A stretch of DNA of 20,000 nucleotides from Phyllosticta citribraziliensis (GCF_038025025.1 NW_027117344.1:2154830-2174829), one strand, 5' to 3'; positions 7,880 to 16,426 are shown, numbered from the stretch's first letter. Notes: generated from the sequence alone by a model not told the origin. Translations and numbers: made by a program.

Positions 7880-10435
7880 TGGGACGACTAGAAATTATTC
7901 GCGAATGTGGTTGCGGGTCTCCAGGACATGTACAAAAGCGACCGACACGCTCGCGAGAATTAAGATCAACTTAACCAGGCGTGGAAAGGAATGACGAGGC
8001 AGCGTGACTTCACGCTTTTGCGGGAAAGCGTTCAAACCAAGTTCGACCAAAATTTGAGCCACAACGGTGCTGGTGAGGAACATCTTGAATATAAAGCTGG
8101 CAAGACGGTGGAGCTTTCAAGCACAGCCCTGTCCAGAGCGGGCCATACCCAACGGAGTCTCGGTGGTTTTCGATTTTTTCGCCCTATCTGGGTTTCATCT
8201 GCGGCAGCAGACAGTGGTTTACAAATTCGTGTGGTGCGAGATTTTGGTGTCTCAGCTATGAGACGCTAAGCTGCGGTTCCTCGCCGGCCGACTCAATCAG
8301 ACCGCTTGAGACGGGTGTCAAGGGGCTTGCCATAATTCGCGAGTAGAATGCCTTTGAGTTGATCTGACCGATGCTGAGGCATTGTTGTAATGAGGAAGAT
8401 CAAGTGGCAAGGCCCACGAGCCGAACGTCTGCATGTGGCCTGCGGGGAGAAATTTCGGCGCTCTCGGATTGCTCGAAATCCAAGTTGGTGAGAAATGGAC
8501 CCTTGTTTGAAATAGTTTGAGGATTGACCACCAGGAGTGATCCGGCGTCGCGATAGGCGCATCCATCTTTATCCATGATCTGGCTTCGGGTTCGCTCCGA
8601 ACAAAGACGTACCAGTGGGCGCTGTCATTTGCCAGACGGTCGAGACTTTCGCATAGCCAAAGGCAGCCAGAATGCCAAGTCGCTGCTCGCCACTTCCATC
8701 GCGCAACTTTAGTCGGTTGATCCGCAAGAAGCTGCCAACAGCAGCGGGGATGAATGAGGCTGCTGTCGTTGAAGATGCAAATGACTGTCTTACATATATT
8801 GGCAGCATCAAAAGCCTTGATTCAATGTCAGAGGAAGAACTGCCAAGTTGTAGTCAAGGTCATAGTTTTCGGGATATAGCACTGCGTGGTCAGCAGCAAG
8901 CATTGTTCAGTCGGTCATCAGCCAAGCTGTCGAACCAGCCAAGCGCTGCATCGGTGGTTCTTATTTGCCCAAGTCCCACATCTTGCACTTGGTGATAGCT
9001 TCCTGGGCCCCGTGGCAGGTTGGCATTGAATCCCAGCTCAGCCCCGTGCAATGCGGAGCTCGTGGTGTGTGATGCAGGGGCAGGAACCAAAGCTTAGCCA
9101 CAGCTTTGGAGTCGACGGCTTATTTGACACGTGCGACCAGGCGCAGTGCAAAGCAGTCTGGCGTGCTCCACTACTGTTCCGGCTTTCGGCTGCGGGTTTA
9201 ACAGATAGCCGTTTCTGGAGCGTCGCGGACTTGATCGGATCCATAGCTTCCATATAGGCACAAAGCACCTACCGTAGGTTTCTAGCATGGGGAATCTGCG
9301 CCAATAGGCACTCGTTTTGAGCAACATTCAGAGCTGCACTGGTTCCTGACCAGACTTCGCAGGAAACAACCCGAGTCGCGGGAATACCGATATCGCGATG
9401 GCGTTCCCTACGCTCGAAAATGCGCGTTAAAAACCGGACTCCCGCGGCATGTCGTTGGAACTTGGGGTTGGACAAGGCCAGCGAGTACATAGCTACTTGG
9501 CTTGTGCCGTGTTGCTGAGCAGAAGGATCGGAGCGCAAAGTCTGATGCCTAAGGTCAGTCAGTCGAGGAAAGGAGGATTGTCCTGTGCTCAAATGGTAGA
9601 CCAATCCGCATCCGAAGTCTACGGATCACACCTGAACCATTTTGCGGCACATCGGGAGAGATGGTGGCTTATGCCTCAAAACACCGAGGCCGACATAGAC
9701 GTGTTGACTTTGGTTAGCAGAAGGTACAGGCGACGGACACCGCCGTTGTTGCCGCAAGGCCCAAGGCCTCGAACCGGTTCTCAACAAACGCTTGGAAACT
9801 GTCGCGGCATTCAAGTATCACAACCCTTGGATGAATCTCTGTTTTCAGTTTGGCGTATCCGACGTGTCTTAGGTAAAGCTTTGACTCGAGAGCCTGGCCG
9901 TTGAAAGCGTGATGCCATTGTTGATGCTATCCGTTACGGGCTTCTGGGTCAACGGTCCGCTCGGTTCCCACTACCTAGCTGATACCATGCGTGGTGCTCG
10001 TACTTACCGCATTATGGAAGCACCAGTCTTCTTCCAATTTCATCGAGTTTGTCATTCTTCCGGCTCCGGCACTTTGCAGGTCAAACTTCAATCTCCACAA
10101 CAAGATCGATTCTCTGTGCTTCTGTTCGATAGAGTCCTTGCGAAGAAATTTCCATCTCCCTCGGGTGTGTGATCTCCTCGAGAAGAAAGTTGAGATTTTG
10201 GAGTGACCAAGAATGTTGGCTTTCTGGCCGGACAGATACCTCAGACAAGCTCTGCTATGTTCGCAAGGACAACCATGAAGTCATCTGGCCGGCACGGCCA
10301 AGATAACCAGGCTGTCGTTAAACTTTGCCATTCGTTTTGTCATCATCGGTTCTGTTCAGCCTTCACCAAGCCCGGTCGGATCCAAAAGTCTTCGCGAATC
10401 TTGGCCGTCGTTTCGACATTCCTCCGTGTCATCGT

Positions 10436-10481
10436 CTAATAGCATCAGCCCAGGTTGATCAAGGGAGGTAGGGGAACTTAT
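10436..10481 (-). other. Terminal 46-nt intron-like element with non-canonical AUAAGU 5' splice site (spliceosomal 3'-end cleavage signal)
   Basis: ATAAGT (10481-10476), pyrimidine tract, branch GCTGAT (10449-10444), TTAG ending at 10436. Size is comparable to the 49-57 nt introns elsewhere in the window. Confidence 0.82.
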
Positions 10482-10488
10482 AAAAAAT
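10482..10488 (-). promoter_or_regulatory. Sm-binding site AUUUUUU at the TER 3' end
   Basis: AGAUUUUUU directly follows a GC-rich hairpin and abuts the AUAAGU site. Confidence 0.8.
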
Positions 10489-10662
10489 CTTGGGCCACCT
10501 CCCCGAGTTGCCTCGGAGAGGCGGCTAGGGCTCCTCGCCCTCCTCCCAGTCTTACCCAACCGCTCATCCCCTGAGTGGCATCCACCACCAAATGCCCCTC
10601 ACTCGCCCACGCATGCATTTCCACAAGATCGCAACCACAGCGTCGAAGCCGCACCCCGGAAT

Positions 10663-10727
10663 GTCAGCCAGCAAGCTCAAACCTAGTCCCGGCCCTTCCG
10701 CCAACCCATCCAAGGGTCCAGACTAAC
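10663..10727 (-). other. Candidate CR4/5 three-way junction (P5/P6/P6.1) of TER
   Basis: GUUAGUC (10727-10721) pairs with GGCUGAC (10669-10663) and encloses a UGG-CCCUU/AAGGG-CCG hairpin plus the short hairpin AGGUUUGAGCUU (10684-10673). Located ~180-245 nt from the predicted 3' end. Confidence 0.6.
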
Positions 10728-11201
10728 GGAGGTGGAAAACGTGAATGAGAGGATGGAAATAAGCCGGCAGCCGCCGTAGGCAGACAAGTCGTAACTTTGA
10801 GCCTCACTCTGGAGAGGTCCTGCCTATTGCCACTGGAACCCGGCCGCAAGCCATCGTATTCTTCCACGAAACCCGGCCTCTGCTGGAATGGCTGTGGTTT
10901 GTCGGCAAGTCGGGACTGTCGAGTTTGCGATTTTGTTGCTGCGTACCAGAAGAAAGCTTTGAAACTGGGTCGACGAACAGTGTCGAAACAACGAGGTTTG
11001 TAAAGAGCAGTTGTTCGACTTTATGGACTCGAGTTCTGTAAGATTCGCAGCGATTGTCAGCCCTGGCCATTGCCACAAACCTCGGTCGGCTTCTCCATTG
11101 CTCCCGCAGAACCGCCAACGGCACTGCCCCGCTTCATCCAAACCTCGATGCCTTGCACCAAGAAGTCATCTCTCTGTTGTTGTTGCAGCCATCCCAGAGA
11201 C

Positions 11202-11282
11202 ACGTTTTTGTTTCCCTGTCGCCACCTGTAGGTAGCGCCGAGGGCGATATTCAGCGGACAAATAACATCATCAAAAACCGCT
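11202..11282 (-). other. Telomerase RNA pseudoknot with U-rich loop and A-rich strand
   Basis: Stem 1 AGCGG (11282-11278)/CCGCU (11257-11253); loop UUUUU (11277-11273); stem 2 AUGUU(A)UUUGU (11268-11258)/ACAAAAACGU (11211-11202). The connecting loop holds a hairpin CGCUACCU/AGGUGGCG. Confidence 0.8.
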
Positions 11283-12361
11283 TCCATCTCCACGCGTGTG
11301 CAGAGGTATTTTCGTACCCAGATGAAAACCCAGGCCGACAGGCTCGGCGCTCACCAGGATTCCCATCGCTGTTCGTTGGGACTGATGATTATCACGGCTG
11401 GTCGGACGACACCACATGGTGACAATGCAGATGGCGGGTGCCGTTGCAAAGGCTGGAGACTGTGCTGGCTGATATGCACTCCAGCAAGATTGGACAGGGT
11501 AGAGCATCAGGTTCGCTGAGCATTTCTGCTTGCGGAGTTGGAGAGCTGCTCGTGATCTTCACCACTGCCGGAATGGCAAGACCAAGTCAAGATTGCCGAG
11601 CCTTTGTGCGTATTGGATCCGCCTGCATTTTTTGAGAATGTCGACCCACACCCACGTTCGCCATGAAGAAGTGGACCCCCAATAAGCCCTTGGGGCACCT
11701 GACGACAGACCTGCAGACTGTCGATGGAACAGCATGCCTAACTCCCTCTGTGTGGTGCTTGCAGATGTCGCTGCACGCAATGCGTGGTTCTGACGATACT
11801 GTCTGGCAAATGGTGGTGGAGGCGAGGGGCATGCGTTCTGTTGTCAGACAAGGGCGGTAGCCGTCAAGACTGCGACCAATCAGGTGACACCGGCCAGGTA
11901 TATTGGTGATGCAACCACATGGTGGAAGCGGACAGCACCGAAGCTGCTTGTGAGGATCGAGGCAACTTTTCAGAAGCCCAAGACGGAATCTAATGTTGCA
12001 GGATCAGCAGCCCGACTGGCCTCATATAAGTTTGACAGAGGACGAAAATCCCATCGACAACCCGTAAAGGTCGCCCGGCAGCTCCCACCTGTGCTATTCC
12101 GGCATTCTCGCTAGGCACTTTGCCTCAAAGCCGTCCATGTAGACCAGAGTCTGCTGTCCGGATTGATGAATCGACGCGCGTCCCTTTCGAGGATCTTACC
12201 AAAACGACGCATGAAACCTCCCCAAGACCACGATTCTCGCTTTGACGACCCTTCCAACAACCTTCGTCCCGGCCGAAGCACACGGGCACATCGGGATGCT
12301 TCCAGGTGCTAGTCACGAGGTCGGCAACTGCGCTGAGGCCCGTGAGACTGAAACCGAAAAT

Positions 12362-12372
12362 GGTTAGGGTTA
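12362..12372 (-). other. Telomerase template 5'-UAACCCUAACC-3' (specifies TTAGGG)
   Basis: Plus strand reads GGTTAGGGTTA, about 1.8 telomeric repeats, in single copy. Confidence 0.88.
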
Positions 12373-12799
12373 AGTTCCGAATCCAATCCTCCCCATCGCG
12401 TCTCCCAGAAGGGCAGCACCGCAACGACCAAGCCACAGACACCGTGAGACCGTGCTGAGAGGCTCGAGTGAAGGACCGGCATCGCAAGCACCAACGCAAT
12501 GGAGTGTCGTTAAACATCCCTACTCCACCGTGAGGTGTTTCGGGGGACGGGAGACGGCGCTGTTATGGGAGGGAGCTGCATCGGTTGTGTTGACGCGGTC
12601 GCGCGAGAGAATGGTGGATGAAGAGAGGCGCGTGCCGTGGGGCCCACAATTGTCAACTTCGTTGAAGACCGGTACGACGGTTTTGAAATTGATGGACAAG
12701 TCGAATGGATGCGAATTTGGAGAGCGAACAGGAGTGGTTCCGCAAAGTCGTTGGTGGTGGAGTTGGAGAAGGGAGACGAAACGGTGGAGGTTGGGGACT

Positions 12800-12860
12800 T
12801 GGGAGACGCGTTTTCGGTTAGTAGCGCGTTTTGGGAAAATACGTGGATGACGTAAGACCG
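12800..12860. promoter_or_regulatory. Compact divergent promoter between TER and RTP1 with MCB-like and CRE-like motifs
   Basis: ACGCGTTTT (12806-12814), GCGCGTTTT (12824-12832) and TGACGTAA (12848-12855). A CT-rich tract runs away on the minus strand, and the RTP1 ATG is at 12938. Confidence 0.45.
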
Positions 12861-12937
12861 GCAGCTCCAGTCACCACGGCATCATCGAAAATATTCCTCC
12901 ACTGAACAACACCACGCCTGTGCTCTATTTTATCGAC

Positions 12938-15900
12938 ATGTCGGCGCTCAGGGGGGCACTCGATGCGGCCAACGCCTTCCTTGCGCCTGCATGGGAGCCT
13001 GGTAATGCCATCGGGCTTATCCGCTGTTCCTGAGTCTGACTAATGAGAAGCAGGGACTGAAGGCATTCTGGATCGCCTCTGTCAACATGTCGGACACGAT
13101 GGCAGCTCAAACATTTCTTCTGTTGTGGTTGAAGTGGCCTTGCAGCATCTTGTGCGGATTCACGAGGCAGATATCGCCAATGAAAGCCAAGGCAGAATAA
13201 GCAACGAGGAAGGCGAATACGACGGAGACTCGAGGACGACGCTTTACGGCCTCCTGGATCTGCTGGCCATTTGTGGAATTCTCCCAGCGCTCTCTCCTGG
13301 TGTCTCAATCAGGAAACGACCTAAATCTCTCATCGGTGGCCTGCAGGAGCCCAAAGAGTCGGAGCGGAGCTTTTCTCAGAATGCCCCGCTGTTAACCCAA
13401 ATCATCGACAGCTTGAGTGAGATTATTTCTGATCCTACACAGGGTCTCGCTCCACTGGTTCGAGAGAGAATTTTGACGGATGTTGTGGCTGGTGCAGCTC
13501 AACTTGCGTTCTCTCCGGAATCCGACTTCAAAACTCAGACAAGGTACAGGGAAGTGTTCGAGAGAATCGTTGAAAAGTAGGTATCCATTTTCTTCATGCT
13601 CCTATCATCCCTCTTCTCGGTTTCATTTGCCCTCAAAATGAGCATGAGCTCATCGTTGCCAGAATTCAAACGTCATCTGCTTTGCCTCTCTTTACCTATT
13701 TGATCCACCCTGAGACTCCTCAGTGGCTCAAACCTCAACTGTCAAACGCGCTCTCTGCGGTACCTTTACGTCCGCATGGTGTTCGATCAACCATCGAGTT
13801 CATTGCATCCTCGTATCCCACACCGCCAATGCCAGCGAATGAGCGTGAACGAAGTGCTCAAAAGGGGCCCGCGTTGCCGCTCGAAGCCATCAGTCAAGCC
13901 TCAAAACTTCTTTCTTCAGTTCCAAGTTTCATGGAGCCGGAGCGCTATTTCAGTGCGCTGGCGCCGCAGCTCCTTGGCATGCTGGATGGAATCGAAGGGC
14001 CAGATTTCTCCAAGGCTGCTGCCCTCGTCATTGGTAGTGGTATTTTGGGCAAACGCGCGACTGGTGCACCAGGAAGTATAGGGTGGAGATTATTTGCTGA
14101 GCCATTGCTATTTGACATTGCTCCGCCCGCCCGTGGGAAATCGACCTCAAAGAATACCCCAGGTGTACTTGTCCCAGAAGATCGTCTCAAGCGCGCTTTG
14201 TCCCGTCTTGCGGCATTGCTCTCCTCACATCCTAACCCAGGGCTGACCAGCCGTCTATTGGGAAACCTCATGATGCCCTTGTGGGCACTTCTGGATCACG
14301 CAAAATCAAGACCCATCGCGCGCTTCTGGTCCGATAATGCCCGCAGGCTGCTCTTGACTTACTTTCGACTTGGGGCTGGAGCAAACCAGCTCGAAAGACT
14401 TGCCACAAACCTGCTCTGGAATGGACCAGATGCTTGGGAATATGGACCGGGCAGCGAAGGTGGGGTCGAAGTCAGACATCGACAAGCAAGCGTTGAGGAC
14501 GAGGGGATTCTCGAAAAAATGGCGATGATGGAGCAGAGGCTGGAAAGCTTTCAAGCCATCTTGACAAGCGACTCGATCGAGGACCATGATATTGGGGAGC
14601 TGTTTGTGAAACTAACCAAGCGATGGCTGCTTCCCAAAACCATATCCACAGAGCCAGGAAAGAGAATAAAGCTCGAAATTGGCGACGAGCAAGACCCACT
14701 CCAGTCACTCATCATCGCCAAGATCGTCATGGTTATGTTGGAGGATTTTAAAGATAAACTCACGTCAAATCCTGATAATCTCATTGAGTTGGTAGCGCAG
14801 CTTCTGGGTCAATGGGTCGAGGACGACAGGGCGAAGAGAAAGAGGAGCAACGATCTGAAGAGGGCCAACTACGCGGGACTATCAAACATTGTCCAGACTG
14901 GAGCGAGGCAGTCGAAACCTGGACAGAAAGACGTTGATGAGCCTGCACAAGTCGAAGCAGGAGATATCGTCCCAGTCGCCCTCAGTCTGCTCAACACGCT
15001 CATTTCCGCTGAGAACTTCAAACCTACCGTTCAAACATCTGCAACACTCTCCGCTATCTTGCCCACACTCGAACTACTCCGCAAGCCGCCGCCTGGCTCC
15101 GATTTACCCGCTTCTGTCTCCATGACGGCCTCGAATCTGACCTCTCAACTGTCGTCACTTCTCAACATACCCGCCAGTCCAAGCAAGGCTGCAGCTACTT
15201 CCTCAAAGCCCAGCGTCATTTCAGACCACGACCGTCAAACTCTTAACACGGCTCTGAACGACCTGACCCAGTCTGAGCACCCTCCTATCCGCGCCGCAGC
15301 CCTCTCCTCAATTGCATCGCTCGCTGCCGCCCAATCACCGTTCCCCGACCTTCCTGGACTGACCTTGTTCCTCCTGCGCACTGCGCTGCCTGATCCCGAC
15401 GGCTTTGTCCATCTGCACGCCATCAAGACGCTAGTCGCCTTGTCTGCGCGCGACCCGCCGCTCATTACGCGCCTTCTTACGGATGCATTCCTCGATCCGA
15501 AGGAAGAAGCCGTAGGGGAGGCAGGACTCGAGGGGCGCCTCAGGGTCGGCGAGTCATTGGGCAAGATTGTCGGCGAAGTGCGCGACGCGTCTGGTTCTAG
15601 CAGCAACCCAGGCGCCATAAGCAACGACGCTCGCGTCGTTTTGGGCAACATTTCGCGCGCAGCCGTGACGGTGGCTGGACGGCGTGGCAAGCGGCCGCGT
15701 GACTTGAAGCAGAGACAACGGGCGGCGATGGTGGAGCAGAGGAAACAAAGAGAGGCGGAGAAAGCGTGGGGAGGCGCGGTGCCGGACATACCCGGCATCA
15801 ACGCCGCCGAGGACGACGAGGATGAGAAAGATGGAGCGAATGCTGCCGAAATTGAGGCCCTCTCGCGCATTGTGACGGGTTGGTCTGAGACGGGGATTTC

Positions 15901-16426
15901 GGAAGACTTGAGGCTGCGCGCGCTGGCCCTCTCCGTCCTCTCGACAGCCGTTGAGGCTCCTGTCACGTTGAGCATGCTCCTGCGCGGGAGTGACACGCAG
16001 AGAGTGGTGCCCGAGGCGGTGGACGTGGCGCTCAAAGTGCTTGTGCTGGAGCAGGAGGAGCGACACGTGATTTTGAGACGTGCGGCACTCATTGTGCTGT
16101 GGAGTCTGATCAAGGGCGTCGACAGCAACGAGGACGGCAACGGGCTGGCCGGCTTTTTGCCGCCGGCTACGTGGGAAGAGATTGAAGGCGTGGCAAGGTG
16201 GGTGCAGGACACGGAGGCTGATGTGCTCGCGAAGGGACACGCAGGGGAGGTTCTGGTGGCTCTTGAGGAGCGGAAAATGGGACGGGCCTTTGGCGCAACC
16301 CCCATGGATGTCGGTATCTTTCCAACAGGCATGACGAGCAACCTGGGTTTGGGAGAATTGAAGGGACTCAGCTTGAATCCTGACAAGAAAGAGGGCAAAA
16401 GGATGGTTATCGAGGAAATTGAGTAG
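12938..16426 (+). CDS. RTP1: RTP1/Tango6-like HEAT/ARM-repeat protein (RNA polymerase II assembly/nuclear import factor), ~1116 aa; exons 12938-13001, 13054-13576, 13663-16426
   Basis: Introns 13002-13053 (GTAATG...ACTAAT...CAG) and 13577-13662 (GTAGGT...GCTCAT...CAG) join ORFs 13125..13580 and 13682..16426 in frame. C-terminal motifs LNDL...PPIRAAAL, DPDGFVHLHAIKTL, RLRVGESL, EDLRLRALALSVL and ILRRAALIVL resemble the RTP1_C1/RTP1_C2 domains, recognised from memory. Confidence 0.85.

Follow-up and report, generated by a model that had tools for sequence, protein, structure and literature searches.

The window, by which we mean the whole stretch of 20,000 nucleotides that was analysed, carries on its minus strand the telomerase RNA (TER) gene of a filamentous ascomycete. 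The gene body, of about 2.28 kb (12766-10482), was delimited with contigs of four public runs, termed X1, X2, X3 and X5, which were compared over 9900-13200; its 5' limit is approximate and its 3' limit is a predicted cleavage site, as only contigs were compared, from which neither RNA ends nor RNA levels can be read. The body is covered by contigs of X1 (10543-12747), X3 (10023-12765) and X5 (10663-12667), as well as by pieces from X2 that reach up to 12766, and the minus strand between 8000 and 13000 holds no ORF longer than 130 aa. These runs derive from RNA, since their contigs skip introns, namely, one on the plus strand at 13001-13052 (X1 and X3) and one on the minus strand at 10007-9927 (X1). 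For X2, RNA is on record only as a guess, and its contig likewise skips introns.

Three elements of a TER core were located in this body, all of them on the minus strand, with the following results. First, the 9-nt template UAACCCUAA (12372-12364), possibly extended by C12363, is complementary to TTAGGG repeats and occurs as a single copy in the window when both strands are searched, at a distance of 1552 nt from P6 on its upstream side. The same nine nucleotides form the template of the 2049-nt TER of Neurospora crassa, printed as 3'-AAUCCCAAU-5' (Qi 2013, PMC3592445), and the core architecture is common to both RNAs. Second, a putative pseudoknot block at 11281-11199, with a U-tract CGGUUUUUGA followed by GGAAACAAAA, gave a local match to the Rfam model RF02462 (Telomerase_Asco) at 11199-11281, with 19.1 bits and an E-value of 0.0035, as compared with a gathering score of 30; this match spans both the U-tract and the A-tract, and coincides with a block that BLAST finds conserved in metagenome TER loci, as it does other blocks of the TER body. 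Third, a three-way junction at 10826-10777, consisting of P5 (GGCAG/CUGCC), P6 and P6.1 (AAGU-UACG-ACUU), was recognised by folding, by a local match to RF02462 (10786-10829, 11.3 bits) and by an exact match to the P6 pattern at 10820-10795. The segment folds as P5/P6/P6.1, but its z-score of only -0.56 is not significant when taken alone.

At gathering thresholds Rfam reports zero matches in the window. However, the RF02462 model extends over 1858 positions and TERs diverge fast, so that a score below threshold weakens only the formal Rfam call; what is annotated here is the TER gene of a Phyllosticta-type fungus that Rfam misses at its threshold. Two other candidates from a permissive Rfam scan, the snoRNAs ceN28 (E 4.8) and sR36 (E 8.5), are chance-level matches. 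No paper on Phyllosticta and telomerase RNA appeared in the literature searched.

The neighbouring gene, on the plus strand, encodes an RTP1-like protein (ORF at 13829-16423), which is 100% identical to a protein of Phyllosticta citribraziliensis, 86% identical to that of P. citricarpa and 81% to that of P. capitalensis, which assigns the window to the first of these species or to a strain nearly identical to it (Dothideomycetes). Its transcript has an intron at 13001-13052. Contigs of this divergent gene start at 12911-12913, with sequencing-adapter letters attached, and those of the TER stop at 12747 (X1), 12766 (X2) and 12765 (X3); from these contig starts, a promoter region of about 145 nt is seemingly common to both genes.

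The terminal module and its relatives in metagenomes

A sequence-only reading of the window had proposed that the RNA ends, as TERs of the Neurospora and Aspergillus type do, at a hairpin and an Sm-like site fused to an A-first splice donor, within 10436-10525. The type of 3' end is borne out by the template, by the local matches to RF02462 and by the presence of the module in homologous loci, and every coordinate given in that reading, for the hairpin, CCAAG, AUUUUUU, AUAAGU, GCUGAU and UUAG, is right on direct reading of the minus strand. The terminal hairpin (10525-10494), which was also recovered by folding, consists of a 5' arm GCCGCCUCUCCGAG (10525-10512), a GCAA loop (10511-10508) and a 3' arm CUCGGGGAGGUGGC (10507-10494), which form 14 pairs, two of the 14 being G-U. 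It is followed by a CCAAG spacer (10493-10489) and by an Sm/Lsm-like U-tract, AUUUUUU (10488-10482), which adjoins the A-first 5' splice site AUAAGU (10481-10476), with cleavage predicted between U10482 and A10481. The branch site GCUGAU (10449-10444) has its branch A at 10445, 36 nt from the donor, and the canonical, conserved acceptor UUAG (10439-10436) lies 9 nt past the branch A, which makes a candidate intron of 46 nt (10481-10436). The layout is therefore that of an A-first intron, in which an A at position +1 opens an otherwise consensus donor, right after a U-rich Sm-like site and with a branch and an AG downstream. Taken together with A10481 the U-tract reads AU6A (AU6R), lacking the G of GR when compared with the canonical Sm site AU4-6GR, and in the predicted fold it is unpaired, directly after the stem.

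The 64-nt stretch at 10545-10482 folds at -39.4 kcal/mol (z = -4.78), and none of 200 dinucleotide shuffles was as stable. The 13-mer AUUUUUUAUAAGU, with at most one mismatch allowed, occurs once on the two strands of the 20-kb window, where 0.01 occurrences are expected and where 3 of 200 shuffles had a match. The module stands 313 nt downstream of P6/P6.1 and 1.9 kb downstream of the telomere template, on the same strand, which is also its location in homologous TER loci. On all these counts, the module is more than chance.

To obtain these homologous loci, the 18 P6/P6.1 positions common to the window and the Rfam consensus were used as a query and scanned over JGI metagenome contigs. The scan returned at least 114 stretches, 80 of them with up to 2 kb of flank; among the matches listed, about four of the 114 have no P6.1-like continuation and are probably false matches. 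The commonest P6.1 in this set, AAGC-UUUG-GCUU (30 of 114, among the matches listed), differs from that of the window (10781-10795, minus strand) by a compensatory change from C-G to U-A. Both have a loop of 4 nt, in contrast with the 5-nt NUNGN loop of N. crassa, and such 4-nt loops are seen in many metagenome TERs. Of the matches listed, 43 extend 1900 nt or more to the upstream side of P6, and in 38 of these UAACCCUAA stands on the same strand, 1064-1852 nt before P6; the controls on those loci, namely, the reverse complement of the template upstream and the motif downstream, both gave zero.

The module itself was counted in the 52 loci whose sequence continues for 400 nt or more past P6, the 62 loci with less than 400 nt being excluded. 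In 45 of these 52 loci, among the matches listed, a U-rich tract, an A-first donor and a CURAY branch follow one another 173-399 nt past P6 (313 nt in the window), the donor and the branch being required by the search itself. Such conservation makes the module of Phyllosticta one ordinary instance of a strongly conserved and already published arrangement of hairpin, U-tract and A-first intron, nearly universal in the TER loci from metagenomes, and the P6/P6.1 pattern together with the module thus works as a practical TER finder. Across the 45 modules the donor hexamer is AUAAGU in 41, AUGAGU in two (L005 and L048), AUACGU in one (L055) and AUAGGU in one (L076). Seven loci, each with at least 400 nt downstream (L009, L028, L033, L037, L061, L068 and L072), have, by the criteria of this search, no A-first module within 100-500 nt past P6; these TER-like loci may use another type of donor or a longer 3' arm.

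After removal of duplicates, 38 unique modules remained, or 39 with that of the window, and the parts of the module could be compared among them. A hairpin of at least 8 bp was found in all 39, ending no more than 25 nt from the 3' end of the folded segment, with segments that stop 7 nt before the donor and were folded sequence by sequence; its z-score is below -2 in 33 of the 39, and hairpin sequences differ widely. The branch, mostly GCUAAC or GCUGAC, lies at +24 to +61 in the homologues, and the first AG falls 7-15 nt past the branch A in 38 of the 39 unique modules. At 8-16 nt past the branch A, an AG is present in 36 of the 39 and an AC in eight, any other dinucleotide reaching at most 28.

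The junction between the U-tract and the donor is more variable. The U-run adjoins the donor in 18 of the 39 unique modules, as in the window, and an Sm-like site of the AAUUUUUGGGG type stands 3-5 nt before the donor in 13. A second layout was also observed, in which a small CCCC/GGGG helix (CCCCUCCAAUUUUUGGGG) holds the U-tract in its loop and AUAAGU follows directly; it occurs in 13 of the 39 unique modules (L013, L014, L017, L019, L026, L027, L031, L036, L042, L049, L053, L054 and L057), and its Sm-like site is canonical (AU5GG), yet predicted to be partly paired.

Splice joints in contigs of public runs

A contig of X2, 1550 nt long, with a word depth of 82.7 and at least 99% identity to the window, joins three segments of the minus strand, namely, 11776-11318, 11035-10482 and 10425-9900. 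The joint 10482|10425 is unambiguous (both = 0, side 255) and removes A10481 through C10426, that is, a 56-nt AU..AC intron (10481-10426, whose ends read GT..AT on the plus strand). Its acceptor, AC at 10427-10426, lies 10 nt beyond the conserved UUAG, which is bypassed. Since the same contig skips a GU..AG intron elsewhere, it is RNA-derived, and the joint means that the predicted bond, between U10482 and A10481, is exactly where the donor is used. The spliceosome thus recognises AUAAGU, in agreement with its proposed role as a splice donor, and the conserved AG is unusable for ligation.

Two further claims of the sequence-only reading are upheld in part. The signals of a 46-nt A-first intron are all present at 10481-10436, but the ligated form that was seen is of 56 nt and uses the AC acceptor. 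Likewise, that the donor permits the first step of splicing only agrees with the block of the second step by A1 published for Aspergillus TER (PMC4299874); however, a ligated AU..AC form exists here, and since the sole joint at the donor is a completed splice, restriction to the first step is not absolute in this organism. That the AC was taken, and not the nearer AG, is accounted for by AT-AC being the best junction pair after GT-AG, as reported for yeast, where it is the most efficient after GT-AG (PMC6726248, citing Parker and Siliciano 1993). We found no description of the use of an AC acceptor in a TER intron among the matches listed in the literature searched.

The AC acceptor is not conserved. 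Another organism, termed organism B and about 4% divergent, has a U at 10426, with donor, branch and AG unchanged; among the rows listed it shows no difference in 10436-10508, whereas the flanks differ by about 5.5-8%. Its hairpin carries the change A10513>G, which keeps the pair as G-U, and its loop becomes GCUA. Given that the AC is unconserved and that the conserved acceptor is the AG, use of the AC looks opportunistic, as leakage would.

The AU..AC termini also called for a comparison with introns of the minor spliceosome. The consensus of U12-type AT-AC introns is AUAUCCUU for the donor and UCCUUAAC for the branch; AUAAGUUC as donor and GCUGAU as branch, as read here, do not fit this type.

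The second joint of the same contig, 11035/11318, removes an internal GU..AG intron of 282 nt (11317-11036, minus strand), with a GUACGA donor, a CUGAC branch and a CAG acceptor. Its removal deletes the whole pseudoknot block, and from this it follows that the ligated RNA in X2 cannot be the catalytic form. This splice was seen in X2 only, the intron being retained in the contigs of X1, X3 and X5. The donor at 11317 has no conserved counterpart among the 15 other unique TER pseudoknot contexts, and a donor-like hexamer of any kind is present in three of the 16 unique contexts, none of them at the position found in the window. This splice could be noise, or could yield an inactive isoform.

The remaining contigs around the terminal module bear less directly on its use. 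The contig of X3 runs unspliced through the site (12765-10023), and represents precursor or contaminating DNA, not cleavage. Contigs of X1 leave a gap at 10472-10542, between 10543-12747 and 10008-10471, that of X5 stops at 10663, and those of X2 have holes at 11777-12143. An RNA end near 10482 would be consistent with these gaps, which are nevertheless evidence neither way, since contigs cannot show ends. The same holds for the back-joining, lariat-type junction, none of which is listed among the contigs of the four public runs. Contig depth in X1 is 654 upstream and 1634 downstream, and such depths cannot rank RNAs.

A probable spliceosomal route to the 3' end and its alternatives

The use of the spliceosome for making the 3' end of a TER has precedents. 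A Sm-like site, an AUAAGU donor and a GCUAACU branch have been described at the 3' end of 13 Aspergillus TERs (Kuprys 2013, PMC3603654). In the case of the A. niger TER sequence expressed in Schizosaccharomyces pombe, RNAs end within the Sm-binding site and the cleaved form dominates (Kannan 2015, PMC4299874). The AUA(A/C)GU donor of Aspergillus TER blocks the second step, and when its A1 is changed to G the cleaved form drops more than 10-fold, splicing becomes dominant, telomerase activity is lost and telomeres are short; in A. niger, the spliced form is barely detected (PMC4299874). Reviews that cite the Neurospora work of Qi 2015 (Nat Commun 6:6105) attribute spliceosomal cleavage, with a distinct donor, to all known filamentous fungal TERs (PMC4993307 and PMC9564094). 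The mechanism is therefore not new, as the donor was noted in 2013, the block of the second step was shown in 2015, and the reviews treat it as general for filamentous fungi.

When compared with Aspergillus TER1, the window has in common the 3' arm of a hairpin (where Aspergillus has its CGGC element), a U-rich Sm-like tract and then an A-first donor, as well as a branch of the GCUAAC/GCUGAC type with a nearby AG. Also common to both are an RNA of about 2 kb, a CCCUAA-containing template, a pseudoknot (in the window a predicted one) and a vertebrate-like P6.1. The window differs in the fungal class indicated by the Dothideomycetes neighbour gene, in its branch, which is GCUGAU instead of GCUAACU, and in the ligated AU-AC product. 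TER1 of S. pombe resembles the scheme proposed here in that its Sm site overlaps or adjoins the donor, that the first step of splicing gives the 3' end (Box 2008; Kannan 2013, 2015), and that precursor, cleaved and spliced forms coexist. However, S. pombe TER1 has a canonical, G-first donor, and its second step is blocked by a strong branch site and a long distance from branch to acceptor (PMC4299874), whereas this distance is only 9 nt in the window, with the block expected from the A at +1.

On these grounds, we consider it very probable that the module is the 3'-end processing signal of the TER, with the spliceosome acting as a 3'-end nuclease whose second step is blocked by A1. RNA polymerase II would transcribe the minus strand from about 12766, through the template, the pseudoknot and P6/P6.1, and past 10482 into an intron-bearing 3' exon. 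The spliceosome would then assemble on the terminal intron, by means of its AUAAGU donor, GCUGAU branch and UUAG acceptor, and the first step would cut between U10482 and A10481. An A at intron position 1 would be unable to make the contact of first and last nucleotides with the G of the AG acceptor, so that the second step would be blocked and the intermediates discarded. The released 5' exon, ending in hairpin, CCAAG and AUUUUUU, would be the mature TER or its immediate precursor; we thus infer a mature end at 10482, as the sequence-only reading had suggested. A hairpin and a putative Sm or Lsm ring bound to the U-tract would stabilise the released end. As for which ring, the end of S. pombe TER1 is trimmed until Lsm2-8 binds, the final protector being Lsm2-8 and not Sm (PMC13303942). 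As a minor leak, splicing may be completed to the nearest AC, a dinucleotide able to pair with A1, giving a ligated by-product.

The single ligated form that was seen passes over the AG at 10436, which fits a block of the second step; yet ligation to an AC did take place, and from contigs no ratios can be read by which the block could be weighed as the productive route, a role that the Aspergillus precedent suggests for it. It is conceivable, but quite improbable, that the locus makes a long polyadenylated non-coding RNA from which the terminal intron is completely removed, like any other U2-type AU-AC intron, with the ligated RNA being functional or the end being made elsewhere, and with no part for the spliceosome as 3'-end nuclease. 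After all, the only joint at the donor, at the depth of the X2 contig, is a complete AU..AC splice, and the major spliceosome can work with AT-AC as a pair (PMC6726248). Moreover, U2-type AT-AC introns (Wu and Krainer 1997; Parker and Siliciano 1993, via PMC6726248) have in common with the window their AU..AC termini and an otherwise standard donor. However, these introns are spliced productively, whereas here it is the AG that is conserved as acceptor and not the AC, for which organism B has a U while keeping donor, branch and AG; the counts of AC and AG past the branch in the unique modules, 8 against 36, point in the same direction. Furthermore, the very contig that documents the ligation is devoid of the pseudoknot, and in the Aspergillus experiments it is the cleaved form that is abundant and active (PMC4299874).

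That transcription terminates and exonucleases then shorten the RNA as far as the hairpin and Sm site, as happens with TLC1 of Saccharomyces, the downstream intron being incidental, seems to us very improbable. A stable hairpin and a U-tract could by themselves stop a 3'-5' exonuclease, and Saccharomyces does use a Nrd1-Nab3-Sen1 pathway (PMC4993307). But if the intron were incidental, 45 of 52 loci, from very different fungi, would not have retained an A-first donor, a branch and an AG with fixed spacing; the spliceosome demonstrably recognises the donor here, as shown by the X2 joint, and in Aspergillus TER the A1G change abolishes function (PMC4299874). Lastly, although the 56-nt and 282-nt gaps are known from the X2 contig, it is hardly credible that they are genomic deletions of another strain or assembly artefacts, given that their borders fall precisely on AU..AC, starting at the predicted donor, and on GU..AG with a CUGAC branch, that the contig otherwise agrees with the window at 99% identity or more, and that X1, another run of the same organism, retains 11036-11317.

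Returning to cleavage by the first step of splicing, what is modestly new is the leak to an AC acceptor together with an internal intron that removes the pseudoknot, both found in one run and both of them possibly splicing noise. The AU-AC form implies that, when the second step does take place with an A-first TER intron, an AC serves as acceptor and the conserved AG is passed over, as the rule of first and last nucleotides predicts (PMC4299874, PMC6726248). It is tempting to speculate, though we regard it as unlikely, that the A-first terminal intron is not a pure dead end, and that escape to the AC and internal splicing, if regulated, set the level of active telomerase RNA. If so, cleavage would compete with unproductive AU-AC and internal splicing, whose ligated RNA, presumably polyadenylated, is also devoid of the pseudoknot owing to a lineage-specific internal intron, and the locus would offer a natural, in vivo demonstration of the rule of first and last nucleotides choosing an acceptor.

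Other joints and the precursor tail

Two further features of the X2 contigs lie in the 5' half of the gene. Just downstream of the template, at 12167-12212 (minus strand), a contig of low depth (10.7) skips 46 nt whose ends, AU..CA on the minus strand, are non-canonical; the shorter side of this joint is 23 nt, and it may be an artefact of reverse transcription on a structured RNA. Nine loose letters at the contig end at 11776 match nowhere in the window, and may mark either a joint with sequence from beyond it or a chimeric contig end.

On the 3' side, the X2 contig links TER exon 1 to the region downstream, so that the precursor extends at least 580 nt past the cleavage site. The 3' exon of this precursor (10425-9900 on the minus strand, and running further) is also represented by an X1 contig (10008-10471) and by the X3 contig. 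Within it, a GU..AG intron at 10007-9927, with GUAAGU and AG read directly, is documented by spliced (joint 9926/10008) and unspliced contigs of X1. Further on, the minus strand from about 10435 to about 8000 is free of ORFs longer than 110 aa, and these 2.4 kb or so may be filled by the precursor tail or by another non-coding RNA.
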